DNA of 45,058 bases from an uncultured Bdellovibrionales bacterium (GCA_964630615.1 CAZVVG010000002.1:2059-47116), one strand, 5' to 3'. Shown: positions 2,284 to 45,058, counted from the stretch's first letter. Numbers and translations: made by a program. The notes: generated by a model from the letters alone, not told the origin.

Positions 2284-3360
2284 ATGGAAATAACAATTTT
2301 AACAATTTTAGTTTTGGGATTGGGGATTATTATGTTCTTGCTGTTAAGGAAAGAAAAATCCGGCAAAAATGAAGAGATGATTGTTCTTATGGAAAAAATT
2401 TCCAACCTAACTGGTCAGAACGAAAAACTTCGTGAGGTAATCGATAGCAAGCTTAAGGAAACGCACCAGGCCAACCAGAGTCAACTTTTTAACGTTAATC
2501 GGACAATTCAGGAAATTAATAGTCAGTCTGCTAAGTTAATTTCTGAAATAACGGAGAAACTGACCAAACTGGATGACACCAACAAGCAGGTAATTAATTT
2601 TTCCGCCCAACTTCAAAACTTGCAAGACATTCTCAAAAATCCAAAACAGAGAGGCGTTTTAGGCGAGTATTTTTTGGAAGAAACGTTAAAAAATGTGCTG
2701 CCTCCGAATTCCTATAAAATGCAATACGAATTTAAGGATGGGGTCATCGTGGACGCGGTAGTTTTTGTCAAAGAAAAAATTATTCCGATTGATTCCAAGT
2801 TTTCTTTAGAGAACTACGAAAGGATTCTCAATGCCGCGGATGAATCAGAGCGAGAGGCTTTGGAGAAGGCTTTTAAGCAAGACTTAAAAAATCGAATTGA
2901 CGAAACTTCTAAATACATAAAGCCAGAAGAAGGAACTATGGAATTTGCCTTTATGTTTATTCCTTCAGAGGCCATTTATTATGATCTTTTGGTGAATAAA
3001 ATTGGAGCTGTGAAAATTGATACCAAAAGTATGATTGAATACGCGTTTCGAGATAAGCATGTGGTTATTGTTTCGCCAACCTCTTTTTTAGCCTATCTCC
3101 AAACGGTTCTTCAAGGTTTAAGGGCAATGGAAATTGAAGAAAATGCCAAAGAAATTAAATCCAACGTGGCTAATCTCCAAAAGCATATTCTGAACTTTGA
3201 TAATTTTATGCAAAAACTTGGCGCGAGTATGTCAACGACGGTTAATAATTACAATCAGGCCTACAAAGAACTCAATAAGATTGACAAAGACGTGGTGAAA
3301 ATTACTGGCAGTGAAAGAGGAATTGAGCCGGAGCTTTTAGAAAAGCCTAACGTGGAATAA
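2284..3360 (+). CDS. rmuC: DNA recombination protein RmuC
   Basis: N-terminal TM helix, a long coiled-coil, and a C-terminal RmuC-type region (FAFMFIPSEAIYYDL, VVIVSPTSFLAYLQ). Confidence 0.85.
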   Translation: MEITILTILVLGLGIIMFLLLRKEKSGKNEEMIVLMEKISNLTGQNEKLREVIDSKLKETHQANQSQLFNVNRTIQEINSQSAKLISEITEKLTKLDDTNKQVINFSAQLQNLQDILKNPKQRGVLGEYFLEETLKNVLPPNSYKMQYEFKDGVIVDAVVFVKEKIIPIDSKFSLENYERILNAADESEREALEKAFKQDLKNRIDETSKYIKPEEGTMEFAFMFIPSEAIYYDLLVNKIGAVKIDTKSMIEYAFRDKHVVIVSPTSFLAYLQTVLQGLRAMEIEENAKEIKSNVANLQKHILNFDNFMQKLGASMSTTVNNYNQAYKELNKIDKDVVKITGSERGIEPELLEKPNVE

Positions 3361-3377
3361 ATTAAAAATTTCTTTTT

Positions 3378-3391
3378 GGCTGTGGATAACT
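3378..3391 (-). promoter_or_regulatory. Inverted copy of the 14-mer AGTTATCCACAGCC (DnaA-box 9-mer on the minus strand)
   Basis: GGCTGTGGATAACT is the exact reverse complement of 1479-1492. Confidence 0.3.
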
Positions 3392-3513: not shown

Positions 3514-3966
3514 ATGAATTGCCCTTTTTGCAATAACTCAGAAACTAAAGTTGTTGACTCCCGGGAAACGAATGAAGGAAAAATTACCCGGCGCCGTCGA
3601 GAATGTTTGAAGTGTGAGGCACGCTTCAGTACCTATGAAGAGGTGGAAATTTTACGTTTGACGGTTATTAAGAAAGACGGATCGCGGGTTGAATATGATA
3701 AAACCAAAATTGAAACCGGAATTCGTAAAGCGCTAGAAAAACGTCCTCTTTCTAAAGAAAAGATAGCTAAGACTCTGGGCGATATTGAATATGAAATTAG
3801 TTCTCTGGAAAAACCGGAAATCACAACCCGGGAAATTGGCAAGATTGTTCTCAAAAAACTCAGGGAGCTGGACGAAGTCGCTTATGTTCGCTTCGCCAGT
3901 GTTTATAAATCCTTTGGTAGCATTGAAAGTTTTAAAAAAGAACTTGACCTTCTGGACAAGGAATAA
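3514..3966 (+). CDS. nrdR: Transcriptional repressor NrdR
   Basis: Zn-ribbon CPFC...CLKC in a textbook NrdR N-terminus (MNCPFCNNSETKVVDSRE), followed by an ATP-cone. Confidence 0.95.
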   Translation: MNCPFCNNSETKVVDSRETNEGKITRRRRECLKCEARFSTYEEVEILRLTVIKKDGSRVEYDKTKIETGIRKALEKRPLSKEKIAKTLGDIEYEISSLEKPEITTREIGKIVLKKLRELDEVAYVRFASVYKSFGSIESFKKELDLLDKE

Positions 3967-4049: not shown

Positions 4050-6254
4050 GTGATGAAAAATAAAAACAAAGAAAAGGGGGAAAAGAAAGGCGATAACAAA
4101 AAAACATCAAGCGGGAAAAGAAGGCTTGAAAACAAGATTAGAAAAATAATCAAGAGAAGCGGAAACATCGTGCCTTTTAACCCGGGAAAAATTACCAAAG
4201 CGGTGGCCAAAGCTTTTCTCGCGACTGGGGAAGGGAGTTTCCAAGACGCCCAAAGAGTAAGCCGAAAAGCCGTTCAGCTTTTAAATAAGAACTACAAAAA
4301 AGGCTATATTCCCGAAATTGAAGAAATTCAGGATTTGGTGGAAAGAGTCCTGATGGTTTTAGATTTTGAAGAAACGGCCAAGGCCTATATTCTCTATCGA
4401 GAACAACATCGAAAAATTCGGGAAACCGAAGAGTCCTTAAGAGAAGCAGTCAGTCTGGTGGATAAATATATTCAAGAAATTGACTGGAAGGTAAAAGAAA
4501 ATGCTAATATGGCTTATTCCTTGCAAGGACTTAATAATTATGTTTCTTCTATTGTCAGCTCTAATTATTGGATGAATCGGGTTTATTCTAAGGAAATTCG
4601 CGAGGCTCACGAGGGAGGAGATTTCCATATTCATGACCTCCAGCTAGTGGCCGCTTATTGTTGCGGATGGGATTTACAGGATCTTTTGCGTCGAGGTTTT
4701 ACTGGAGTTTTTGGAAAAGTAGCTTGCAAGCCAGCGAAGCATCTAGGTTCCGCTTTGGGACAAATGGTTAACTTCATTTATACTCTTCAAGGTGAAGTGG
4801 CGGGAGCGCAAGCTTTTTCTAATGTGGACACTTTACTCGCCCCCTTTGTCCGTTACGATAAACTCAGCTACGAAAAGGTTAAACAGGAAATTCAATCCTT
4901 TGTTTTTAATATGAACGTTGCGACGCGGGTGGGATTTCAAACTCCTTTTTCCAATATTACCCTAGATGTTACTCCGCCTAAAAACTTAGCCGAGGAAGCT
5001 GTTATAGTTGGGGGCGTCCCCCAAAAAGAAACTTACGGAGATTTTCAGGAAGAAATGAATATGCTGAACCGGGCTTTCGCAGAAGTAATGACTTCCGGCG
5101 ACGCGAATGGAAGGATTTTTACTTTCCCAATTCCTACTTATAACATTGGAAAAAATTTTGACTGGAAAGATAAACGTTACGACCCGATTTGGGAAATGAC
5201 GGCTAAATACGGGATTCCTTATTTTGCAAATTTTATCAATTCCGATATGGACCCTGATGATGCGCGTAGCATGTGTTGCCGCTTACGTCTTGATAACCGC
5301 GAGTTGCATAAAAGAGGCGGCGGTCTGTTTGGCGCCAATCCTCTTACGGGTTCTATTGGAGTGGTAACCATTAACCTGCCTCGCTTGGGATATTTAGCAA
5401 AAAACAAAAAAGATTTTTTTAAGCGACTGGAGGGATTGATGAATTTAGCGAAAGAAAGCTTGGAAACAAAAAGAAAATTAATCGAAAATTTGACGGAAAA
5501 GGGCCTTTATCCTTACACCAAGTTTTATCTGGATTCAATTAAGCTCCGCCGTGACTATTATTGGGGCAACCATTTTTCGACGATTGGCTTGGTGGGGATG
5601 AATGAAGCCCTGTTAAATCTTATTGGAGAAAATATAACAACTCGCGCCGGACAAAGACTAGCCAAAGAAATTTTGGAACAGATGCGAGAAAAAATTGTTG
5701 ACTACCAAAAAGAAACGGGCAACCTCTATAATTTGGAAGCGACTCCGGCGGAAGGCACCTCCTATCGTTTAGCCAGAATAGATAAGGAAAAATATCCTAA
5801 AATTGTTTTTGCCAACGATGAGATGGTCAAAGAAAAAGACGCAGAACCTTATTATACCAACTCTTCCCAATTGCCAGTTAACCATACGGAAGACATTTTT
5901 GAAGCGCTGGAACTGCAAGATGAGCTCCAGACTAAATACACGGGAGGAACCGTGTTGCACGGATTTTTGGGGGAAAGAATTATGGACGTGGAAACTACCA
6001 AAAAACTGGTGAAAAAAATAGCCGAAGATTATGCGCTGCCTTATTTCACACTTACTCCGACTTTCAGTATTTGTCCGGTGCATGGATATATTGCTGGCGA
6101 GCACTACACCTGCCCAAAGTGTGTGATAGAACAGAAAACCGAAGTCTACTCGCGCGTTGTGGGTTATATCCGACCGGTAGAACAATGGAACAAGGGAAAG
6201 CAAGCAGAGTTTTCTCAGCGGAAAGAATTCGTTTTAAAAAGTAAAAAAACTTAA
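4050..6254 (+). CDS. nrdD: Anaerobic (class III) ribonucleoside-triphosphate reductase NrdD
   Basis: K-rich N-terminal tail, an ATP-cone, a large NrdD body, a C-terminal CPVH...CPKC metal site and an RVVGY glycyl-radical loop. The GTG at 4050 is immediately followed by ATG at 4053, and either could be the start. Confidence 0.95.
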   Translation: MMKNKNKEKGEKKGDNKKTSSGKRRLENKIRKIIKRSGNIVPFNPGKITKAVAKAFLATGEGSFQDAQRVSRKAVQLLNKNYKKGYIPEIEEIQDLVERVLMVLDFEETAKAYILYREQHRKIRETEESLREAVSLVDKYIQEIDWKVKENANMAYSLQGLNNYVSSIVSSNYWMNRVYSKEIREAHEGGDFHIHDLQLVAAYCCGWDLQDLLRRGFTGVFGKVACKPAKHLGSALGQMVNFIYTLQGEVAGAQAFSNVDTLLAPFVRYDKLSYEKVKQEIQSFVFNMNVATRVGFQTPFSNITLDVTPPKNLAEEAVIVGGVPQKETYGDFQEEMNMLNRAFAEVMTSGDANGRIFTFPIPTYNIGKNFDWKDKRYDPIWEMTAKYGIPYFANFINSDMDPDDARSMCCRLRLDNRELHKRGGGLFGANPLTGSIGVVTINLPRLGYLAKNKKDFFKRLEGLMNLAKESLETKRKLIENLTEKGLYPYTKFYLDSIKLRRDYYWGNHFSTIGLVGMNEALLNLIGENITTRAGQRLAKEILEQMREKIVDYQKETGNLYNLEATPAEGTSYRLARIDKEKYPKIVFANDEMVKEKDAEPYYTNSSQLPVNHTEDIFEALELQDELQTKYTGGTVLHGFLGERIMDVETTKKLVKKIAEDYALPYFTLTPTFSICPVHGYIAGEHYTCPKCVIEQKTEVYSRVVGYIRPVEQWNKGKQAEFSQRKEFVLKSKKT
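6132..6229 (+). repeat. Direct repeat copy 1 (nrdD 3' end encoding the glycyl-radical loop)
   Basis: 98 nt matching 6425-6522 with 4 mismatches by manual alignment. Confidence 0.9.
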
Positions 6255-36795: not shown

Positions 36796-38201
36796 AAATT
36801 GAAGAATTACGAGGAAAAAAAATTACCGTGATGGGTCTGGGACTCTTGGGAGGTGGCGTAGGCAATATCCGGTTTCTGCACGCAGCCGGAGCTAAAATCT
36901 TGGTAACCGATTTGAAATCAAGGGAAGAACTCTCTGAATCTCTCAAGGCGCTTAAGGATCTGAAAGGAATCGAATATGTTTTAGGCCAACACCGAGTGGA
37001 AGATTTTGGAAAAGCCGATCTAATCCTCAAAACCCCCTTTGCTCAGTGGGAGGAAAATAAGTATGTAAAAATAGCGCTGGATAAAAAAATTCCGGTAGAA
37101 ATGGACTCCAGTCTTTTTTTTAAGCTTTGTAAAAATAAAATTATCGGGGTGACTGGGACTAAGGGCAAGACCACGACCGCCTCTCTGATCTTTGAGATTC
37201 TTAAAAAAGCCGGAAAAAAACCGGTTCCCGTTGGGGTGGGGCAAGTTTCTGTTTTGGATAAGTTGGGAAAGTTAGAGAAAGAGAGCTGGGTGGTTTTCGA
37301 ACTTTCCAGCTGGAGGTTAAGTGGCTTAAGACGAAACCAGCTCAGTCCGCAAATCGCCGTTTTGACCAATCTTTATCCCGATCACCTAAATTATTACAAA
37401 AAAATGGAGGACTACATTCTTGATAAAAAGGGAATTTTTGCTTGTCAAAAGCCGGGTGATTTTTGTATTATTAATTGGGACGACGAGACTTTGAAGCAGT
37501 GGGAAGCGGAAATTAACTCTCAAATCATAAAAATTTCTCAGCAAAAAATAGAACGGGGCAAGGCGGTTTGTATTGAAGACGGAATAATTCTTCTCAAAGA
37601 CGGAATTGATGAAAGAAAAATCCTGGAAATTGAAAAAATTAAACTCAAGGGAAGACACAATCTTTCTAATATCTTGGCCGCTATTGGAGCTTCTTTCGCG
37701 GCCGGAGTGAGTCTGGAAAAAATTCGAGAAGCCGTTTTGGAACTTCGAACACTGCCGGCCCATCGCCTGGAATTGGTTCGGGAATTAAACGGGGTGAAAT
37801 ATTACAATGATACCGCTTCTACTACTCCGGAAAGCACGGTTTCCGGCATTAATTCTTTTGAAGAGCCGATTATTTTAATTTGCGGCGGGGCGGACAAAAA
37901 CCTGGATATGTCGCTTTTGACTGAAACCATCTGTCGTCAGGTCAAGGGAGCGGTTTTTCTGGAAGGCAAGGCTACCGAAAAAATTCTTTCTTTTATGGGT
38001 AAATTTTTCGGGCAAGGAGTGGATGAAAAAAAATTTCCGGTCGTCGGCTCGGTGGAAAAAGCCCTAGAATTAGCCTGTGGTTCGGCGGAAAAGGGAGACG
38101 TGGTTCTTTTTTCTCCGGGTGCCGCCAGTTTTGGGCTTTTTGCCAATGAATTTGAAAGGGGAAACAAATTTAAAGAAGCGGTGATGAAATTGAAATCCTA
38201 G
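36792..38201 (+). CDS. murD: UDP-N-acetylmuramoyl-L-alanine--D-glutamate ligase
   Basis: GLGLLGGGVG Rossmann motif and GVTGTKGKTTT P-loop. The ATG overlaps the stop of the upstream gene (ATGA). Confidence 0.93.
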   Translation: MKIEELRGKKITVMGLGLLGGGVGNIRFLHAAGAKILVTDLKSREELSESLKALKDLKGIEYVLGQHRVEDFGKADLILKTPFAQWEENKYVKIALDKKIPVEMDSSLFFKLCKNKIIGVTGTKGKTTTASLIFEILKKAGKKPVPVGVGQVSVLDKLGKLEKESWVVFELSSWRLSGLRRNQLSPQIAVLTNLYPDHLNYYKKMEDYILDKKGIFACQKPGDFCIINWDDETLKQWEAEINSQIIKISQQKIERGKAVCIEDGIILLKDGIDERKILEIEKIKLKGRHNLSNILAAIGASFAAGVSLEKIREAVLELRTLPAHRLELVRELNGVKYYNDTASTTPESTVSGINSFEEPIILICGGADKNLDMSLLTETICRQVKGAVFLEGKATEKILSFMGKFFGQGVDEKKFPVVGSVEKALELACGSAEKGDVVLFSPGAASFGLFANEFERGNKFKEAVMKLKS

Positions 38202-38241
38202 ACAGGGATTTTTGTTTTTGCTAAAATAAACCACTGTTTTT

Positions 38242-38314
38242 GGGCCTGTAGCTTAGTTGGTAGAGCACCTCGTTTGCAACGAGGGGGTCAGCGGTTCAAG
38301 TCCGCTCAGGTCCA
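38242..38314 (+). tRNA. tRNA-Ala (anticodon UGC)
   Basis: Manual cloverleaf. The acceptor gggcctg pairs with caggtcc and includes the G3:U70 alanine identity pair. The anticodon arm is cctcg-tttgcaa-cgagg (TGC) and the T-arm is agcgg-ttcaagt-ccgct. No CCA is encoded. Confidence 0.93.
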
Positions 38315-38320
38315 CTCGTA

Positions 38321-38356
38321 CTTGACATATTCCTTGACATATTCCTTGACAAATTC
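38321..38356 (+). repeat. 12-mer array A: 3 contiguous units (cttgacatattc x2, cttgacaaattc), 6 nt after the tRNA-Ala 3' end
   Basis: Read directly. Confidence 0.9.
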
Positions 38357-38412
38357 AGGTTCGGTCTTGGTTTCTAGGGCTGATTTATTCTTCCCAGTCC
38401 ATATCCCACATT

Positions 38413-38440
38413 TTGACGAATCAAATGTTTAAGATATAAT
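38413..38440 (+). promoter_or_regulatory. Candidate promoter for the membrane protein gene
   Basis: TTGACG, 16 nt, TATAAT. Confidence 0.4.
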
Positions 38441-38509: not shown

Positions 38510-39328
38510 TTGAAAAATATTAAAAAAAATAAAAAAATCGACCTCCTGATACTTATATTCATTCCGATACTGACTGCTTTTGTGTTGCTGTTTTATCGAG
38601 AAAACTTTCTGATCTCCACAATTTTATTTTTTGGAACCCCGTCTTTATATTTGGCGGTCAGACACAAAAAAGCCCTAAAAAAGACTTTTATTTTCTCCCT
38701 GCTTTTTTCCGTGCCACTCACATTCATATTTGATTATCTTATAGCCAAAGATAAAGGCTGGCATATTGTAAGTTCAATTTTACCTTTTAGAATTTTTGGT
38801 ATTGTTGCCTTCGAGCAATTTATTTGGGCGTTTTTGTGGGTTTTCTATATTGTAATTTTCTATGAGTATTTTTTAGATAAGCAAGAAAAACGGTCGATTT
38901 TTTCATTTTTATTTACCAAGAGCGAAACTATAACTAGGCCGATGGAATATTTTGCGCTCGTTCTGTTTACGTTATTATTATTTTTTACTTTTTTTGCCTT
39001 TTTTTGCCCAACATATTTGAAAATCGATTATGCCTATTTAGTGCTCGGTACAATATTCGGAATAATTCCGCTGTCAATTTTCCTTTTCAAATTCCCAAAC
39101 TTTTCTGTCAGATTTTTAAAAGCCACCTTTTATTTCTTTTTCCTTGCTTTAATCATTGAATATGTTGGGTTGAAATTAAATCACTGGATTTTCCCCGGAA
39201 GCAATTTTATTGGAGTTGAAAATTTTTTTGGGTTCATGATTCCTTATGAAGAAATTATGATTTATTTCGTTTTATCAACCCCCATTGTTCTGTCATATTA
39301 TGAATTTTTTGACGACGACAGGCGGTAA
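38510..39328 (+). CDS. Polytopic membrane protein, possibly lycopene-cyclase-domain family (tentative)
   Basis: TTG start and about 7-8 TM segments. Two internally similar halves carry VAFEQFIW and IPYEEIMIY, which resemble the PxEE-type motif of CrtYc/Yd-like domains. The family call is weak. Confidence 0.7.
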   Translation: MKNIKKNKKIDLLILIFIPILTAFVLLFYRENFLISTILFFGTPSLYLAVRHKKALKKTFIFSLLFSVPLTFIFDYLIAKDKGWHIVSSILPFRIFGIVAFEQFIWAFLWVFYIVIFYEYFLDKQEKRSIFSFLFTKSETITRPMEYFALVLFTLLLFFTFFAFFCPTYLKIDYAYLVLGTIFGIIPLSIFLFKFPNFSVRFLKATFYFFFLALIIEYVGLKLNHWIFPGSNFIGVENFFGFMIPYEEIMIYFVLSTPIVLSYYEFFDDDRR

Positions 39329-39477: not shown

Positions 39478-40221
39478 CTATTTTCCGGGTGAGGGCTTTG
39501 CATCTGGATAAAAAAAATAATAATCCCGATAACTGGTCAAGAAATTTTTTAGGTCTTTTTTAATTTTTGCAGCCGCTTGAGTGTTTAGGGGTTGGTTTTT
39601 GTATCTCCTTCGGAAATTAACCGCCCGTTCCACTGTGTCAGCAAATTTGAAATTTGGAAAATGTTGTCTGATTTTTTGAGGTAGTGCCTCTTTTTTAATT
39701 AGGATGCCCTGACTAATCAGCATGGCGTCGGCCATGTTGATGATGTAGCCGACTTGGTTCTTTGGTTTTCTCTTGAAAATATTCCATTGGGGATCCATAT
39801 TGGTTGCGTGCAAATAATTCATTCTTAATTCCGTTTCAAGATCCCGTTTCAATATCTCCCGCACATTAATATTTTTATGAATCTGTTGGCCAAAGAGCAG
39901 TTTGCTTTTTTTGGCTAACTTAATCAAATCTAAATTACCAATGAAACGATAACTCTGGTTTTTTCTGAGCCGTTTGAGAAACTCCGGATAGGACCAGAAA
40001 TGATATTTTATTTCTAAGTGCTTTAATGGAACGGCCTGCTGAAAGTCTATTTTAACTGCTCCCTTTTCCTTTAAAATTATCAAGAGGTCGTAATCACTCC
40101 ATCCGGCAAGATTTTCACCAGACCCAAAGCTACCAGTAGCGTAAAGAGAGACAATATTATTTTTTAGATATTTTTTAGCAATTCTAACAATGCCGGCTTC
40201 AATTTTTTTTATTTCCATCAA
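39478..40221 (-). CDS. Pol-beta-superfamily nucleotidyltransferase with a helical C-terminal domain (ANT/KNTase-like or MNT-HEPN-like fusion)
   Basis: The NTase signature YATGSFGSGENLAGWSDYDLLII fits G[SG]x9-13DxD. The C-terminal helical region contains an Rx4H string (RMNYLH). Confidence 0.8.
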   Translation of the reverse strand: MMEIKKIEAGIVRIAKKYLKNNIVSLYATGSFGSGENLAGWSDYDLLIILKEKGAVKIDFQQAVPLKHLEIKYHFWSYPEFLKRLRKNQSYRFIGNLDLIKLAKKSKLLFGQQIHKNINVREILKRDLETELRMNYLHATNMDPQWNIFKRKPKNQVGYIINMADAMLISQGILIKKEALPQKIRQHFPNFKFADTVERAVNFRRRYKNQPLNTQAAAKIKKDLKNFLTSYRDYYFFYPDAKPSPGK

Positions 40222-40443: not shown

Positions 40444-40523
40444 GGTTCCAACCAATTCCCCTGAGGGGTACGCGCTCTTGACAAATCCCTTGACATATTC
40501 ACCTCGTCTTACTTGACAAATCT
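40444..40523 (+). repeat. Module B: GGTTCCAACC motif, cccctgagggg hairpin, then 12-mer array B (cttgacaaatcc, cttgacatattc, 11-nt spacer, cttgacaaatct)
   Basis: Read directly. 40489-40524 matches 44452-44487 with 4 mismatches in 36 nt. Confidence 0.85.
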
Positions 40524-40534
40524 CTCTAAAACTA

Positions 40535-40562
40535 CAGAACTTTCACCGAGTTCTGTTTTTTT
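40535..40562 (+). terminator. Hairpin plus T-run (cagaact ttcaccg agttctg TTTTTTT) closing module B
   Basis: 7-bp perfect stem and 7 T. The stem is identical to the hairpin at 44511-44531. Confidence 0.6.
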
Positions 40563-40613
40563 GCCGGCTAACATCCCGAAACATACCCCCCAAGCTTTTC
40601 CCTAGTCTCCAAT

Positions 40614-40642
40614 TTGGAAAACCCAGCTTTTCAAGGTAAAAT
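40614..40642 (+). promoter_or_regulatory. Candidate promoter of the giant gene
   Basis: TTGGAA, 17 nt, TAAAAT, about 65 nt upstream of the ATG. Confidence 0.35.
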
Positions 40643-40706
40643 AGAGTCAATAAGCTCCAGCCGATAAATCATCAGAATAATTAAATTTTTTAATTAAAAC
40701 ACAACT

Positions 40707-43700
40707 ATGACAGAACAATTTAAGAAATTTGATTTTTCCAAACCCGAAGACCAAAAAGAGTTTAACGCCCTGGAGGCTCAAAAAAAGGCAGAAGTAAGAA
40801 AAGGAGCCGAAGAAGAAGCGGCCAAAGAAGGAATGCTAAAGCGTTTATCCGAAGGTAGTATTTATTCTTCCATACGAATCAAAGATGAATTCAAGCTGCC
40901 GGAAGACTTTGTCCAATCAGCTGAAGTCCAATCAGCAGCCAAAGAAGGAATGCAAAAGTGTTTATCCCGAGGCTATTCTGATTATGCCATACGAATCAAA
41001 GACGAATTCAAGCTGCCGGAAGACTTTGTCCAATCAGCGGTCAAAGAAGGAATGCAAAAGTGTTTATCCCGAGGCTATCTTAGCGATGCCATACGAATCA
41101 AAGACGAATTCAGGCTGCCGGAAGACTTTGTCCAGTTAACCGAAGTCCTCTCAGCGGCCAAAGAAGGAATGCAAAAGCTTTTATCCCAAGGCCATTCTGA
41201 TTATGCCATAGAAATCAAGGACCACTTCAAGTTGCCGGAAGACTTTGTCCAATCAGCTGAAGTCCAATCAGCAGCCAAAGAAGGAATGCTAAAGTGTTTT
41301 TCCCGAGGCTATCTTAGTGATGCTATAAAAATCAAAAACCACTTCAAGCTGCCGGAAGACTTTGTCCAGTCAACCGAAGTCCAATCAGCGGCCAAAGAAG
41401 AAATGCTAGAGCGTTTATCCAAAGGCTATATTAGCGATGCCATAGAAATCAAGGACCACTTCAAGCTGCCGGAAGACTTTGTCAAGCCAGCAGCCGAAGA
41501 AGGAATGCTAAAGCGTTTATCCGAAGGCTATCTTAGCGATGCCATACAAATCAAGGACCACTTCAAACTGCCGGAAGACTTTTTCCAGTCAGTCGTAAAA
41601 GAAGAAATACTAAAGCGTTTATCCCGAGGCGATATTGGTTCTGCCATACGAATCAAAGACGAATTCAAGCCGCCGGAAGACTTTGTCCAATCAGCTGAAG
41701 TCCAATCAACCGCCAAAGAAGTAATGCAAAAGTGTTTATCCCGAGGCGATATTGATTATTTCATAAAAATAAAAGACCACTTCAAGCTGCCGGAAGACTT
41801 TGTCCAGTCATCGGCCAAAGAAGGAATGCTAGATCGTTTATCCCAAGGCTCTATTAATTCCGCCATAGAAATCAAAGACCGATTCAATATCAACATACCT
41901 CAGAGCATTCTATTTCAAGAACTTCCCAAACTTCAAGAATTGGTAAACGAAATAGAGAATCTGGCGCCAGGGTTTAATTTCCAAGTGCAAAAGTCCAGCG
42001 ACTTAGCGATAGAGCTATGTCGTTTTCTAAATGATCCGGATCAAATGATAGACAACGTCCGAGAAAATCCCTTCCTGATCGATGCGCTGACTCGCAACTC
42101 CCGTTTTTCCGCCCGTCTCTTGGTTAAATATCAGGAATTTGACACTCTTTCCCAAGAGAATATCAAGAAACTTTATTCCGCCAAAGAGAAAATCCTGGCC
42201 GCTCATCTGGAAATAGATCCAGAATCCCTGGAATTCCGTCAATTAATTCAGGAGGAATTAAGAGAATACAAAAACAATCCGGAAATAGTCGAGGAAATCA
42301 AAGAGCAGGAGATCAATCTGGAAGAATGGCTCAATTATTCAGAAACCAGCTATTTCAATCTGTCCACCGGCGGAAGTGAAGTCGCTTTCTCGGAAAAAAT
42401 CCATACACCGATCGAGAGGATCAAGGAGACAATCGACAGCTACGCCTATACGCTAAAATCAGTCTTAAAAGAATATCGGCCGGAAATGGAAAAGTTTGAA
42501 ATTATTCTGGAAGACGCCAAGTCGATAGCCGACCAAATAGCCAAAATGGAAGCGGCTTTGAATCAGGCCCGAACTGAGGGCAATGAGAAAAAAGCCCAAG
42601 GCATTGAAAGAGGATTGGCTTCGCAAAAAGAAAAGCTCAACAACTTGAAAAAAGGCTTTCTCTGGGACAAGCTTATGGGTGAAATCGCCGCTTTTCAGCG
42701 ATTGAAAAACGATTGCTTTGACGCGCAAAACAGATTGCTGGAAGCGGAAAACAAATTGGACGAAGCTTTGTCTGGAAAAACACCGTCCGGGAAAATGATC
42801 CAGGATATCAAACAGAAGATAACCCAATCCAAAGAAGAGCTGCGCAATAAATTCAGCGATCTGGAAAAAAGAATCGAGGATTTCAAGACCGAACTGCCGG
42901 GATTGATCTCACCTTGCCTGAGCGCTATCCGAACGGAGGCGCTGCTTCAGGAAATCAATCAAAAAATGGCCGAACAATTCAATCACTTTGATACGGATCG
43001 GACCGATTTAGCTAATCTTTTTTCCGAGCGCGGCGACAAAGAAACCGCGCAACTGGAATCCCGCCCGATGAGCATCTTCGTTTGGGCCAGAAACCCGGAC
43101 ATCGATCTTTATCAAGGCAATTACTCGCCCTGCTGCATTTGCATAGACAGCGCGCATATGGGTGCCGAGTCAACAATCGCCGACTACAATACCGATCTGG
43201 GTGTGCAAATTGTAAACATCTGGGATGAAACCAAAAATGAACCGGTAACCGCCGCCTGGTGCTGGTTAGGGGAGAACGAAAAAGGCGAAACCGCGCTGGT
43301 AGTAGACAATATTGAGTCCAATACGCTATATAGCTTAAACTTTTCCGAGCAATTAACCAAAGAGCTATTCGACTATATCAAAGAATATGCTCAAAAAATT
43401 GGCGCGGATAAAGTAGTTTTAGGCAAAGATAATAATGATTTGCCAACCGGCAGTGAATTGGCCAGGATGCCGGAAGATGGAAATAGCTATGAAAAAATCG
43501 GCGGCAGCAATCGCGCTGACGGCTATTTTTTGGAAGCAGAGGGGAGAAGTGTTAAATCAGTTTGGGAACGAACAAAAAAGCGAACAGAGAAAAAACCCAA
43601 AACGGAAAAACGAATCAAAAAAATTGTCTTTAACAATTTGACAACGACGATAATCAAGGAGAATAACTTAAGCCAGATTTTACAAGCGGAAAGAAAAATC

Positions 43701-44150
43701 TATGCTGGCACGGGATTAATTAGCGGGCAAATCTTAACTGAAGATATTAGGAACAATAACGGTTTTGAATTCTCCTTGGCCATGACTGGCTTAAGGCCTG
43801 GAAAGAAATCGGCAGAAACTGTCGCCTATATCGTAGCCGTGGAAGACGAAACCGACGAAGGCGATCCGTCAATCTACCTTGAAGACATCGCGGTTTTGCC
43901 GGAAGCGCAAAGACAGGGAATCGGCTGGGAAATGATGAAAGAGTTGATTAATAAATTGAAAGCCAAAGCGCAAAGAGAAAACAAGCCGGTCTTACTGGAT
44001 ATGCATTTGCGGGAAACCTCCCAGAATTTTATGGCCAGACACAAAGAAGACCTAGAAAGATTGGGAGTAAAATTAATTGAAGAAGCCCTGGTAGCCGATT
44101 ACTATGAAGAAGGCGAAGATTCACTTTATCAGGTTTACGAAGTGAGATAA
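40707..44150 (+). CDS. 1147-aa multidomain protein: 10 tandem 34/39-aa repeats, a coiled-coil region, a Cys-containing alpha/beta domain, and a C-terminal GNAT N-acetyltransferase
   Basis: No signal peptide or TM segment. The repeats span about aa 38-393. The region aa 400-780 is a heptad-rich helical region. Residues about 786-945 (YSPCCICID...ALVVDNIE...LFDYIKEYAQKIGADKVVLG) look GNAT-fold-like but lack a CoA P-loop. Residues about 972-1147 form a clear GNAT domain (IYLEDIAVLPEAQRQGIGWEMMKELI). Confidence 0.9.
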   Translation: MTEQFKKFDFSKPEDQKEFNALEAQKKAEVRKGAEEEAAKEGMLKRLSEGSIYSSIRIKDEFKLPEDFVQSAEVQSAAKEGMQKCLSRGYSDYAIRIKDEFKLPEDFVQSAVKEGMQKCLSRGYLSDAIRIKDEFRLPEDFVQLTEVLSAAKEGMQKLLSQGHSDYAIEIKDHFKLPEDFVQSAEVQSAAKEGMLKCFSRGYLSDAIKIKNHFKLPEDFVQSTEVQSAAKEEMLERLSKGYISDAIEIKDHFKLPEDFVKPAAEEGMLKRLSEGYLSDAIQIKDHFKLPEDFFQSVVKEEILKRLSRGDIGSAIRIKDEFKPPEDFVQSAEVQSTAKEVMQKCLSRGDIDYFIKIKDHFKLPEDFVQSSAKEGMLDRLSQGSINSAIEIKDRFNINIPQSILFQELPKLQELVNEIENLAPGFNFQVQKSSDLAIELCRFLNDPDQMIDNVRENPFLIDALTRNSRFSARLLVKYQEFDTLSQENIKKLYSAKEKILAAHLEIDPESLEFRQLIQEELREYKNNPEIVEEIKEQEINLEEWLNYSETSYFNLSTGGSEVAFSEKIHTPIERIKETIDSYAYTLKSVLKEYRPEMEKFEIILEDAKSIADQIAKMEAALNQARTEGNEKKAQGIERGLASQKEKLNNLKKGFLWDKLMGEIAAFQRLKNDCFDAQNRLLEAENKLDEALSGKTPSGKMIQDIKQKITQSKEELRNKFSDLEKRIEDFKTELPGLISPCLSAIRTEALLQEINQKMAEQFNHFDTDRTDLANLFSERGDKETAQLESRPMSIFVWARNPDIDLYQGNYSPCCICIDSAHMGAESTIADYNTDLGVQIVNIWDETKNEPVTAAWCWLGENEKGETALVVDNIESNTLYSLNFSEQLTKELFDYIKEYAQKIGADKVVLGKDNNDLPTGSELARMPEDGNSYEKIGGSNRADGYFLEAEGRSVKSVWERTKKRTEKKPKTEKRIKKIVFNNLTTTIIKENNLSQILQAERKIYAGTGLISGQILTEDIRNNNGFEFSLAMTGLRPGKKSAETVAYIVAVEDETDEGDPSIYLEDIAVLPEAQRQGIGWEMMKELINKLKAKAQRENKPVLLDMHLRETSQNFMARHKEDLERLGVKLIEEALVADYYEEGEDSLYQVYEVR
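40818..41885 (+). repeat. Intragenic tandem repeat, 10 units of 102 or 117 nt
   Basis: Units begin at aa 38, 77, 111, 150, 189, 228, 262, 296, 335 and 369. The consensus is AAKEGMLKRLSxGxxxxAIxIKDxFKLPEDFVQS(AEVQS). Long stretches are identical at nucleotide level between units. Confidence 0.95.
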
Positions 44151-44218
44151 TCAAATACGTCCCAGAAAATTCCAAGGAGAAAGTAAAAGTCTTTAGGAAA
44201 AATAGAAATCTTTAGAAA

Positions 44219-44244
44219 GCAAGGACAAAACCTCCTTGCTTTTT
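44219..44244 (+). terminator. Rho-independent terminator of the giant gene
   Basis: gcaagga caaaacc tccttgc followed by ttttt. Confidence 0.7.
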
Positions 44245-44262
44245 CTCTTTCCAAAACCCCCC

Positions 44263-44291
44263 GGTTCCAACCGATGAACGTCAGGTACTCC
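44263..44291 (+). repeat. Extra copy of the GGTTCCAACCGATGAA...AGGT motif
   Basis: The first 16 nt are identical to 44401-44416 and then diverge. A shorter GGTTCCAA lies at 44349-44356. Confidence 0.7.
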
Positions 44292-44400
44292 TTAGCGGAT
44301 TTTTGAAAAATTAAAGGTGTTTCAGGTTTCAAACAAAACTAAAAAGCTGGTTCCAATACCTGTCTCAACTTGTCCCATTTCTTCAATTCTGACACGATTT

Positions 44401-44510
44401 GGTTCCAACCGATGAAGCCGAGGTCCACTTGACATATTCCTTGACAAACCCCTTGACATATTCACCTCATCTTACTTGAGAAATTCCTTGACCTATCTCT
44501 TGACAAACCC
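44401..44510 (+). repeat. Module C: GGTTCCAACC motif, AGGTCCAC (identical to the tRNA-Ala 3' acceptor end), then 12-mer array C (6 units with one 11-nt spacer)
   Basis: The units are cttgacatattc, cttgacaaaccc, cttgacatattc, [acctcatctta], cttgagaaattc, cttgacctatct, cttgacaaaccc. Confidence 0.85.
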
Positions 44511-44539
44511 CAGAACTCCAACCGAGTTCTGTTTTTTTT
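44511..44539 (+). terminator. Hairpin plus T-run (cagaact ccaaccg agttctg TTTTTTTT) closing module C
   Basis: Same stem as 40535-40555 and 8 T. Confidence 0.6.
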
Positions 44540-44597
44540 ATTCTCCGCTTACCAACATCTTTTAACTATCAGATATTTATGATATATTTACCTCAGA

Positions 44598-45058
44598 ATG
44601 CCAATCAAAATCGTCGACAAAAAACGCTTCTGTCTTTTTATCTCCCTGGTTATCAGCTTGGTAGTTTTTTTGGTCTTCGGAGTGTATTGGTTCTATGAAA
44701 ACTCCAAACTCAAACCTCTCAATTCCCAGGCAACTACCAGTGAGTTCTTAAACTCCCTCCAAGTTTCCAAAGAAAGCTACTTCCAGAAAGAACCCCTTAC
44801 CACCAAAGAACTCAAGCTTCTTAAAGAAAAACAACCGGAGCTCTTTTCTTCTTCCTCCCAAAGAAGAAGCGAAGCGATCATTAAAGAACACCAGACCCTC
44901 CTTGAATCCATCTCTAAGAATAAACTCGGTCTTCCTAAGGACCAAAACCAGCTCAAAGCCCTAAGTTTCCTCAAGAAACTCTCCCTTAATCCGTATCCCT
45001 TCCCATCTTCCAAAAACTCCCAATCTCTCTTAAACAAGCTCAAAGCCCAAAACTCCCT
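44598..45058 (+). CDS. Hypothetical membrane-anchored protein, 3'-truncated by the window edge (not in the supplied ORF track)
   Basis: Manual translation from ATG 44598 is open to the end of the window: MPIKIVDKKRFCLFISLVISLVVFLVFGVYWFYENSKLKPLNSQ... It has an N-terminal TM anchor. Codon choice is C-ending (ctc, tcc, ccc), unlike the core genes. Confidence 0.5.
   Translation, partial: MPIKIVDKKRFCLFISLVISLVVFLVFGVYWFYENSKLKPLNSQATTSEFLNSLQVSKESYFQKEPLTTKELKLLKEKQPELFSSSSQRRSEAIIKEHQTLLESISKNKLGLPKDQNQLKALSFLKKLSLNPYPFPSSKNSQSLLNKLKAQNS

Follow-up and report, generated by a model that had tools for sequence, protein, structure and literature searches.

Repeated attP-like modules behind tRNA-Ala(TGC) suggest tandem accretion of integrase-less cassettes in a Patescibacteria-type genome

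Introduction

Cis-mobilisable elements (CIMEs) are integrase-less elements that are flanked by att sites and accrete in tandem at tRNA genes (PMC5704250). Here we describe a locus that resembles such an accretion: the DNA behind the tRNA-Ala(TGC) gene in a 45,058-nt window (the whole stretch that was analysed, contig C2:2059-47116) of a Patescibacteria-type genome, G000, which consists of 64 contigs totalling 743 kb at 40% GC. The genes of this locus are separated by copies of a non-coding module, of which A, B and C lie in the window and D and E on a second contig of the same genome, C27 (C-numbers denote contigs of G000 throughout). We put at roughly 0.6 the probability that integrase-less, CIME-like cassettes have accreted in tandem at this tRNA gene by site-specific recombination at an 8-bp core.

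The locus is like CIME accretion of the ICESt1/ICESt3 type, in which att-flanked units without integrase or transfer genes stack head to tail at the 3' end of their target and composite units are lost or moved together (PMC5704250). Here, too, modules flank each cassette and the cargo lacks recombinase and transfer genes. Unlike in CIMEs, the cassettes are only 2-4 kb long with one or two genes, the identity segment is 8 bp, the joints carry iterated 12-nt arrays and stacked, decayed site copies, and the host has a 0.74-Mb genome of Patescibacteria type; nor is an integrative and conjugative element (ICE), integrative and mobilisable element (IME) or integrase partner seen in the stack.

Integrons, and the CALINs that Cury et al. 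2016 reportedly described as clusters of attC sites lacking an integrase, offer another comparison. As in these, small cassettes that mostly have unrelated cargo, and that each carry a recombination site, form an array running one way with its primary site at one end and no integrase within it, and an enzyme encoded on contig C57 is XerA/integron-integrase-like. Unlike in these, there are no folded sites of the attC type (the module folds no better than its shuffles, z = -0.17 and +0.03), no GTTRRRY/RYYYAAC pair flanks the module, promoters and terminators come with the cassettes themselves, and the anchor is a tRNA 3' end and not an attI beside intI; the C57 recombinase, moreover, lies on a separate contig and scores 220 bits against the integron-integrase cut-off of 265. 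With attP sites of the lambda type, which belong to heterobivalent tyrosine integrases aimed at tRNA 3' ends, the locus shares a short overlap identical to the tRNA 3' end, arms of ~100-170 bp with directly repeated motifs, and an element-borne copy that reconstitutes the tRNA end. It differs from them in an array that begins 0-5 nt from the core with a 12-nt period and up to seven units, and no integrase with an arm-binding domain was found here.

Gene flow in Patescibacteria, also known as the candidate phyla radiation (CPR), is poorly known, these being tiny, host-dependent cells with few recognised mobile elements. At this locus a single tRNA gene is followed by a stack of small cassettes (membrane protein, nucleotidyltransferase, acetyltransferase and giant surface proteins) with an 8-bp core, and the population differs in its cassettes. 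If the exchange is site-specific and driven in trans, it would form a compact cassette-exchange system whose logic is akin to CIME accretion and to integrons; it would account for the hypervariable surface-protein loci of Patescibacteria/CPR, and its short att sites and candidate recombinases would be open to direct testing. On a conservative reading the comparisons below still document, throughout a whole family, a hot spot of integration at tRNA-Ala(TGC).

Results and discussion

Structure of the modules

An earlier note on this DNA had described modules of about 120 nt at three joints. There are in fact five joints (A to E), and module C is really ~280 nt long (44258-44540). In full order, the module consists of a left arm of ~170 nt, the core AGGTCCAC, an array of 12-nt units (six, plus one degenerate) and a hairpin with a T run. 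The left arm holds three GGTTCCAA motifs, the outer two of which extend to GGTTCCAACyGATGAA(4 nt)AGGTnC. The motif GGTTCCAACC, already noticed in modules B and C, is indeed found at 40444-40453 and 44401-44410, and occurs a third time at 44263-44272. The reported likeness of these two modules also stands: their array cores (40477-40521 and 44440-44484) agree at 42 of 45 positions (93%), and their hairpin regions (40529-40562 and 44505-44538) match at 85%, with an identical 7-bp stem, CAGAACT/AGTTCTG, and a T run. A 5-nt spacer separates core and array in A (TCGTA) and B (GCGCT), and there is none in C and D. The ~45 nt upstream of the left part of module B align weakly to the left arm of C, D and E. 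The features of the tRNA gene and of the three modules in the window are as follows.

38199-38227, + strand: promoter-like site belonging to tRNA-Ala (promoter scan)
38242-38315, + strand: tRNA-Ala(TGC), the attB-like anchor gene (ARAGORN; Rfam tRNA, 70.8 bits; murD-tRNA-Ala conserved in relatives)
38308-38315, + strand: core AGGTCCAC, the final 8 nt of tRNA-Ala (same 8-mer at 44421-44428 and in D and E on C27)
38321-38356, + strand: array A, three units CTTGACAwATTC after the spacer TCGTA at 38316-38320 (TRF period 12, 3.0 copies, 95% matches)
38361-38393, + strand: weak hairpin and T-rich tail after array A (terminator-like site at 38361-38383)
40444-40476, + strand: left part of module B, with GGTTCCAACC at 40444-40453, the decayed core AGGGGTAC at 40464-40471 and the spacer GCGCT (read from the sequence)
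40477-40523, + strand: array B, three units (40477, 40489 and 40512) and an intervening degenerate unit of 11 nt (93% match to 44440-44484)
40534-40562, + strand: hairpin ACAGAACT/AGTTCTGT and T run of module B, terminator-like (terminator scan, repeat comparison)
44258-44420, + strand: left (P-like) arm of module C (92% identical to D, 89% to E, both on C27)
44263-44288, + strand: DR1, GGTTCCAACCGATGAAC...AGGTAC, within the left arm of C (read from the sequence)
44349-44356, + strand: middle GGTTCCAA, within the left arm of C (read from the sequence)
44401-44417, + strand: DR2, GGTTCCAACCGATGAAG, within the left arm of C (read from the sequence)
44421-44428, + strand: core AGGTCCAC of module C (read from the sequence)
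44428-44510, + strand: array C, six 12-nt units and a degenerate one of 11 nt, adjoining the core without a spacer (repeat comparison)
44511-44539, + strand: hairpin CAGAACT/AGTTCTG and T8 of module C, terminator-like (terminator scan)

A BLAST search of the whole genome with module C recovered module D (C27:2836-3115) at full length with 92% identity, and the left half only of module E (C27:4690-4857) with 89% identity. Beyond these five there is no copy elsewhere in the 743-kb genome, and a search for module DNA in 60 relatives from the family and order gave nothing above noise. The modules are thus confined to the tRNA-Ala locus and are not a dispersed REP-like (repetitive extragenic palindromic) element, the outcome that the note had named as its own refutation. 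All five copies share one orientation, and downstream of each right arm a promoter-like site is followed by a + strand gene.

The array repeat itself is far from random: CTTGACA-N5-CTTGACA matches eight times in the window where 0.17 matches are expected (0 of 100 shuffles reach eight), and 14 of the 15 CTTGACA[ACT]A[ACT][CT]C units in the genome fall inside modules. Searches of genome and metagenome contig collections with the generic three-unit CTTGACA-N5 pattern returned only unrelated 12-nt tandem repeats, and the specific module patterns had no match in viral contigs or by blastn against phages. The module has no match in Rfam, shows no folding beyond the terminal hairpin on either strand relative to shuffles (the z values given above), and contains no promoter detectable by our scan. 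Coding by its minus strand was considered and rejected: reading frames are interrupted in the array, and the missing 3' part of the truncated gene described below is not to be found in the left arm.

The core at the tRNA end

Within the tRNA, AGGTCCAC comprises the 3' strand of the acceptor stem, the discriminator and one further base. The tRNA-Ala 3' sequence runs ...CTCAGGTCCAC, then TCGTA, then the three units of array A. As had been proposed, the 8-mer at 44421-44428 is the final 8 nt of tRNA-Ala, and a 12-mer array adjoins it in both places. The tRNA's 3' end is directly repeated as AGGTCCAC in C, D and E, with 10 of 11 positions matching in D, and in decayed form in B. We suggest that AGGTCCAC would serve as the crossover or overlap region. 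The proposal that GGTTCCAACC is a degenerate T-arm has no statistical support: local alignment of the tRNA with the left arms yields AGGTCCA(C) only, or GCyCAGGTCCA in D, at shuffle p values of 0.06-0.5.

Breakpoints and variant joints

The homology breakpoints in A, in E and in a contig from another sample, L260 (L-numbers denote individual contigs that were compared), all fall on AGGTCCAC. Module A resembles C and D in core and array, but left of the core it has nothing in common with them. Module E has the whole left arm and the core in common with them, and diverges at the very next base. Beyond the E core lies a minus-strand open reading frame (ORF) that ends ...KPPKWWT* (TGG TGG ACC TAG), cut at codon 119 of ~197; its homologues, from unrelated phyla, are ~197 aa long and continue ...WWTAYNKxKHHR.... 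At this joint the module core meets a fortuitous (G)GTCCAC inside the HEPN-like gene. The missing 78 codons are not encoded by the left arm and are nowhere in the assembly, and thus the E joint was formed on no more than 7-8 nt of identity.

Contigs of the same population from other runs were recovered by exact-protein look-ups. Those made with the 247-aa nucleotidyltransferase and the giant GNAT protein of the stack gave no match, and the remaining ones gave G000-like contexts only. L260 (SRR27710296) agrees with the window at 100% identity over 1.6 kb through murD and the tRNA, after which ...CTCAGGTCCAC is joined to TTGACATATTCCTTGACAAAC, which is the array of C/D type without TCGTA(C), not array A. 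L260 could come from array A only through two deletions, of 6 nt and 12 nt, and a substitution, all within 30 nt of a 1.6-kb stretch that shows no other difference. Since only 8 nt are common at the joint, it is neither an artefact of a k=31 graph nor a RecA product. The predicted empty site, namely the tRNA followed by a single array and then the gene at 44598, is matched by L260 for its first 21 nt; the sequence after those 21 nt is beyond the contig.

A second variant, L299 (JGI 3300076298), carries the end of the giant gene, one left arm, the core and the truncated gene, and the cassette for a 477-aa protein that lies between D and E in G000 is missing from it. Because its arm is of D type as far as CCGGTTCCAACTGATG and of E type from ATTTTTGAAAAATAAACTGCG, the exchange is placed within the identical 30-nt stretch TGAACGTCAGGTACTCCTTAGCGGATTTTT. 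This stretch includes AGGTAC, the core analogue of an older site copy, near DR1. The apparently D-type end of a further contig, L301, was discounted, as it reaches only 2 nt past the 30-nt repeat in a k=31 graph.

Tyrosine recombinases need sequence identity in a short overlap region only, as a passage in PMC2817482 describes. The breakpoints at the core look like the behaviour of a recombinase with such a requirement, the alternative being microhomology-mediated joining. The earlier claim of site-specific integration into the tRNA gene gains from the insertion itself, the core breakpoints and the variant joints; that the recombination was site-specific rather than homologous we infer from the breakpoints.

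Continuation of the stack on contig C27

From its sequence, C27 most likely continues the window, with the ORF that begins at 44598 running on at C27:3-2813. This ORF and the one entering C27 are alike in an extreme codon bias, with C3 at 0.40 and G3 at 0.13 where the genome averages 0.20 and 0.21. N-termini of this giant surface protein type occur twice in the genome, at the end of C2 and on C22 (32% identical and colinear), and C-terminal parts likewise twice, on C27 and where C18 starts. Because the overlap of C27 with C22, over 137 aa, is just 91% identical, C27 pairs with the C2 end by elimination. The stack then reads tRNA-Ala, A, membrane protein and nucleotidyltransferase, B, GNAT giant, C, giant surface protein, D, 477-aa secreted protein, E and truncated HEPN-like gene, and leads on to tRNA-Arg, tRNA-Ile and secE. 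By 55-mer overlaps of contig ends, the C2 end, both C27 ends, the C23 end and the C57 end stay unlinked.

The truncated 119-aa ORF, at C27 (L001) 4848-5207 on the minus strand, represents the N-terminal 60% of a ~197-aa family with the conserved, HEPN-like motif WWTAYNKxKHHR; a DUF3800 gene at 5269-6123, also on the minus strand, adjoins it. The truncated gene is up to 76% identical to proteins of Thermodesulfobacteriota metagenome-assembled genomes (MAGs). The pair looks defence-like, recently imported and then truncated.

The locus in related genomes

The pair murD-tRNA-Ala(TGC) is conserved, and after it 7 of 10 relatives have tRNA-Ile(GAT), (secE) and nusG-rplK-rplA. In G000, secE-nusG is found on C23, and tRNA-Ile(GAT) and tRNA-Arg(CCG) are missing from the assembly. 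Two same-population contigs (L310 and L311, the latter JGI 3300076255) show the end of a giant gene followed by tRNA-Arg(CCG), tRNA-Ile(GAT), orf67, secE and nusG. Relative to the family order murD-tRNA-Ala-tRNA-Ile-(secE)-nusG, the region behind tRNA-Ala is an insertion, as the note had it, and in the G000 population this extra DNA amounts to at least 16 kb.

The closest relative, G010, whose murD is 71% identical, has ~200 nt between tRNA-Ala and tRNA-Arg(CCG). A displaced tRNA-Ala 3' half lies in this interval, and a 511-aa large serine recombinase (L286 798-2333) is convergent on tRNA-Arg. Further relatives carry tRNA-Ile fragments or unrelated insertions at the tRNA-Ala/tRNA-Ile interval. 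Judged by these tRNA fragments, serine recombinase and insertions, the interval is an integration hot spot across the family. In the relatives with islands here there are tRNA fragments only, and no module-like direct repeats.

Several of these fragments have features of their own. In G010 (L286 ~575-680) the tRNA-Ala 3' half contains a 37-nt insert in its T-loop. In G013 (L287 513-600) and G006 (L294 2070-2232), 5' parts of tRNA-Ile are duplicated, with ~100 nt of other sequence after them, and G011 (L292 733-756) has a displaced tRNA-Ile 3' part. A GCGGGACAAGC motif lies upstream of several tRNA fragments in relatives.

Candidate recombinases

The earlier statement that no integrase is present is correct for the window, where, as on C27, profile searches gave no PF00589 or PF00239 match; the genome does encode three recombinases elsewhere, with PF00589 on C57 and C10 only and PF00239 on C4 only. 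The C10 protein is XerC/D-like and conserved in relatives. C57 (L018) 1204-2106, on the minus strand, encodes a 300-aa tyrosine recombinase on a 2.1-kb contig whose end upstream of the gene is an assembly break. This protein passes the XerA/integron-integrase model (231 bits, cut-off 220) and scores 220 bits with the integron-integrase model TIGR02249, below the cut-off of 265; its orthologues in relatives are patchy and often contain stop codons. On C4 (L313), a gene for a 524-aa large serine recombinase (1375-2949, + strand) overlaps with its 3' end the 3' end of tRNA-Trp (2919-2990, - strand). Its 37%-identical homologue in G010 likewise overlaps tRNA-Arg(CCG), beside tRNA-Ala, which points to a family of serine-recombinase elements targeting tRNA 3' ends.

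Two classes of element bear on these candidates. IMEX are integrative elements that exploit the host Xer recombinase at dif. Like them, the cassettes here are integrase-less and in tandem, as IMEX often are, and could be moved by a chromosomal Xer-type recombinase; unlike dif, the 28-nt sequence GGTTCCAACCGATGAAGCCnAGGTCCAC lacks inverted 11-bp arms by inspection, and the target is a tRNA gene. The large-serine-recombinase elements at tRNA-Trp in G000 and tRNA-Arg in G010 resemble the locus in that a convergent gene overlaps the tRNA 3' end, much as the truncated gene overlaps the E core. They differ in that the cassettes here have no such gene, and long conserved arms and arrays are atypical of simple serine-recombinase att sites.

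Proposed mechanism and alternatives

We propose that each cassette would begin with a right arm (the 12-nt CTTGACAnAnnC array and hairpin terminator), continue with its own promoter, one or two cargo genes and usually a terminator, and end in a left arm of ~170 nt that holds older, decayed site copies (GGTTCCAAC...AGGTnC). Arrays A, B and C would be the right (P') arms of cassettes 1, 2 and 3 respectively. C and D would then be complete attP-like joints of left arm, core and right arm, ~280 nt long, at which two cassettes meet; A, with core and right arm at the tRNA, would be attL-like, B a decayed joint and E a joint into a secondary site. A recombinase could act in trans, the candidates being the XerA/IntI-like enzyme of C57, the Xer protein of C10 and the large serine recombinase of C4, with the 12-nt arrays as putative arm-type or accessory protein-binding sites. 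Because array, terminator and promoter follow one another in uniform order, the right arm may both restore a trailer and terminator to the tRNA after integration and insulate the cargo promoter; the hairpin after array A is a probable terminator of the tRNA transcript. The giant gene had been taken for a segment of its own, 40477-44430. It does have modules on both sides, but the core of its left border, B, is decayed, and the giant GNAT gene alone is probably no longer an excisable unit.

A number of observations weigh against accretion by site-specific recombination. The stack neither contains nor adjoins a recombinase gene, the three encoded in the genome show no link to it, and both Xer-like enzymes lack an arm-binding domain. 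The likeness to the tRNA spans just 8 nt (10 of 11 in D), that of the left arms to the T-arm is not significant against shuffles, the core of B is decayed (AGGGGTAC in place of AGGTCCAC), and a spacer of 5 nt parts core from array in A and B, unlike in C and D. L260 extends just 21 nt past its joint, and the switch from D to E type in L299 is off the main core, where homologous recombination or a low-coverage mis-join is possible. Finally, the adjacency of C2 and C27 is deduced and not assembled, 55-mer end overlaps giving no link. 

A rival explanation is a locus without any dedicated recombinase, in which the modules are duplicated terminator/insulator units of a hypervariable surface-protein locus and homologous or microhomology recombination moves the cassettes. 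The L299 crossover within a 30-nt identical stretch of ~170-nt arms that are ~90% identical is what homologous exchange would give, the profile search found no integrase nearby, the modules end in terminators with promoters next to them, and giant surface genes also stand behind tRNA-Gln, tRNA-Glu and tRNA-Ala(CGC) without full modules. However, the three independent joints A, E and L260 have no more than the 8-nt core in common, an identity too short for RecA, and one of them falls exactly on the fortuitous (G)GTCCAC of the HEPN-like gene; had the crossover been within the 18 nt of common array, L260 would have retained the TCGTA(C) that is absent from it, and the flanking genes are unrelated, so that gene duplication did not spread the modules. 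We regard this explanation as unlikely. We are just as doubtful of a more ambitious form of the accretion proposal, in which the locus would be an integron-like, tRNA-anchored platform whose self-expressed cassettes of one or two genes, each with an attP-like site of ~280 bp that combines a tRNA-derived 8-bp core with an iterated 12-nt accessory array, are captured, stacked and shed at the end of tRNA-Ala by the chromosomal XerA/integron-integrase-like recombinase in trans; if true, it would mean dedicated swapping of surface and defence genes in a genome with almost no other mobile DNA.

It is improbable, in our view, that the 12-nt arrays are simply regulator boxes for the accessory genes downstream (direct repeats of OmpR/PhoP type, or reiterated -35-like elements), with the tRNA link incidental. 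A + strand gene does lie 90-190 nt downstream of each array, the combination of TTGACA and a 6-nt spacer is similar to the direct-repeat boxes of regulators such as Bacillus PhoP, and 12-nt CTTGACA tandem arrays stand right before -10 boxes in unrelated bacteria. Yet a terminator hairpin intervenes between every array and the promoter, no -10 box is found 16-18 nt past the last unit, and the core breakpoints, left arms and variant joints are left unexplained; as an added function, a regulatory role of the arrays is compatible with accretion at the core. That the module is a dispersed REP or miniature inverted-repeat transposable element (MITE), or a small RNA gene, is suggested by a repeated, non-coding unit of ~280 nt with an intrinsic terminator at its end, but has very little chance of being right: the copies are confined to one locus and one orientation, terminal inverted repeats are absent, and the fold z-scores, the lack of an Rfam match and of an internal promoter speak against a small RNA, so that this reading is already largely refuted. 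Least credible of all is an assembly or binning artefact. The MAG is fragmented, and its contigs break at the tRNA-Ala locus, but three contigs from independent Logan/JGI assemblies (L303, L261 and L297) reproduce A to B, D to E and E onwards at 99.5-100% identity, and because they show the same arrangement the G000 structure is not an assembly artefact.

Cargo genes

The cargo genes in the window, with their promoters and terminator, are listed here.

38413-38440, + strand: promoter-like site of cassette 1, TTGACG-16-TATAAT, 11/12 matches (promoter scan)
38510-39328, + strand: 272-aa polytopic membrane protein, cassette 1 (ORF; weak TctB match only; 31.5% GC)
39478-40221, - strand: 247-aa nucleotidyltransferase (NTP_transf_2), cassette 1 (Pfam; 36.7% GC)
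40614-40642, + strand: promoter-like site before the giant GNAT gene, TTGGAA-17-TAAAAT (promoter scan)
40707-44150, + strand: 1147-aa protein with ten 34/39-aa repeats and a C-terminal GNAT domain, cassette 2 (ORF, Pfam; 43.4% GC)
44219-44244, + strand: terminator hairpin GCAAGGA/TCCTTGC with TTTTT after the giant GNAT gene (read from the sequence)
44598-45058, + strand: 5' part of the giant surface-type protein, cassette 3 (ORF running off the contig)

A hairpin comparable to that after the GNAT gene follows the 477-aa gene on C27. The cargo ranges from 31.5% to 50% GC, with the giant surface protein at 50% and the 477-aa protein at 36.6%. Of 40 relatives, one has a homologue of the membrane protein and one a homologue of the nucleotidyltransferase; for the GNAT giant, 24 genomes of the same family gave none, and another family of the order has a 58% homologue. 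The compositional difference whose absence the note had named as a refutation is present, the cargo being mixed in GC and patchy among relatives. There are no recombinase or transfer genes among the cargo, and PADLOC returned only two weak, sub-significant matches on it.

In the other-family genome G047, a fragment of a GNAT giant C-terminus (61% identical, with one stop codon) is found at L320 (G047:C31) 3176-3382, ~240 nt upstream of tRNA-Gln (3619-3690), and the full 58%-identical homologue lies elsewhere in that genome.

Other observations

In many unrelated bacteria (L035, L045, L059, L089, L104 and others), a good -10 box lies 16-17 nt downstream of the end of tandem 12-nt CTTGACAnnnnn arrays. 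Such arrays are reiterated -35 regions, perhaps a general device for promoter tuning or phase variation.

Giant surface-type genes also lie directly downstream of tRNA-Gln, tRNA-Glu and tRNA-Ala(CGC) in G000 (C22:1-1323, C41:1-1238 and C36:3828-6902). Their products have the N-terminus MKYRIVDKKRF and the genes have C-rich third codon positions. The trailer hairpin of tRNA-Gln, CAGAACCAACCCCTGGTTCTGTTTTT, resembles the module hairpin. The last giant gene, upstream of tRNA-Arg/tRNA-Ile/secE (L311 1-209), encodes a C-terminus that reads ...WSGCSRNCGGGTRT...CNTQPCLPGYKEVSPW* and contains a thrombospondin type-1-repeat-like motif; a paralogue of this gene end is found at the end of C36.

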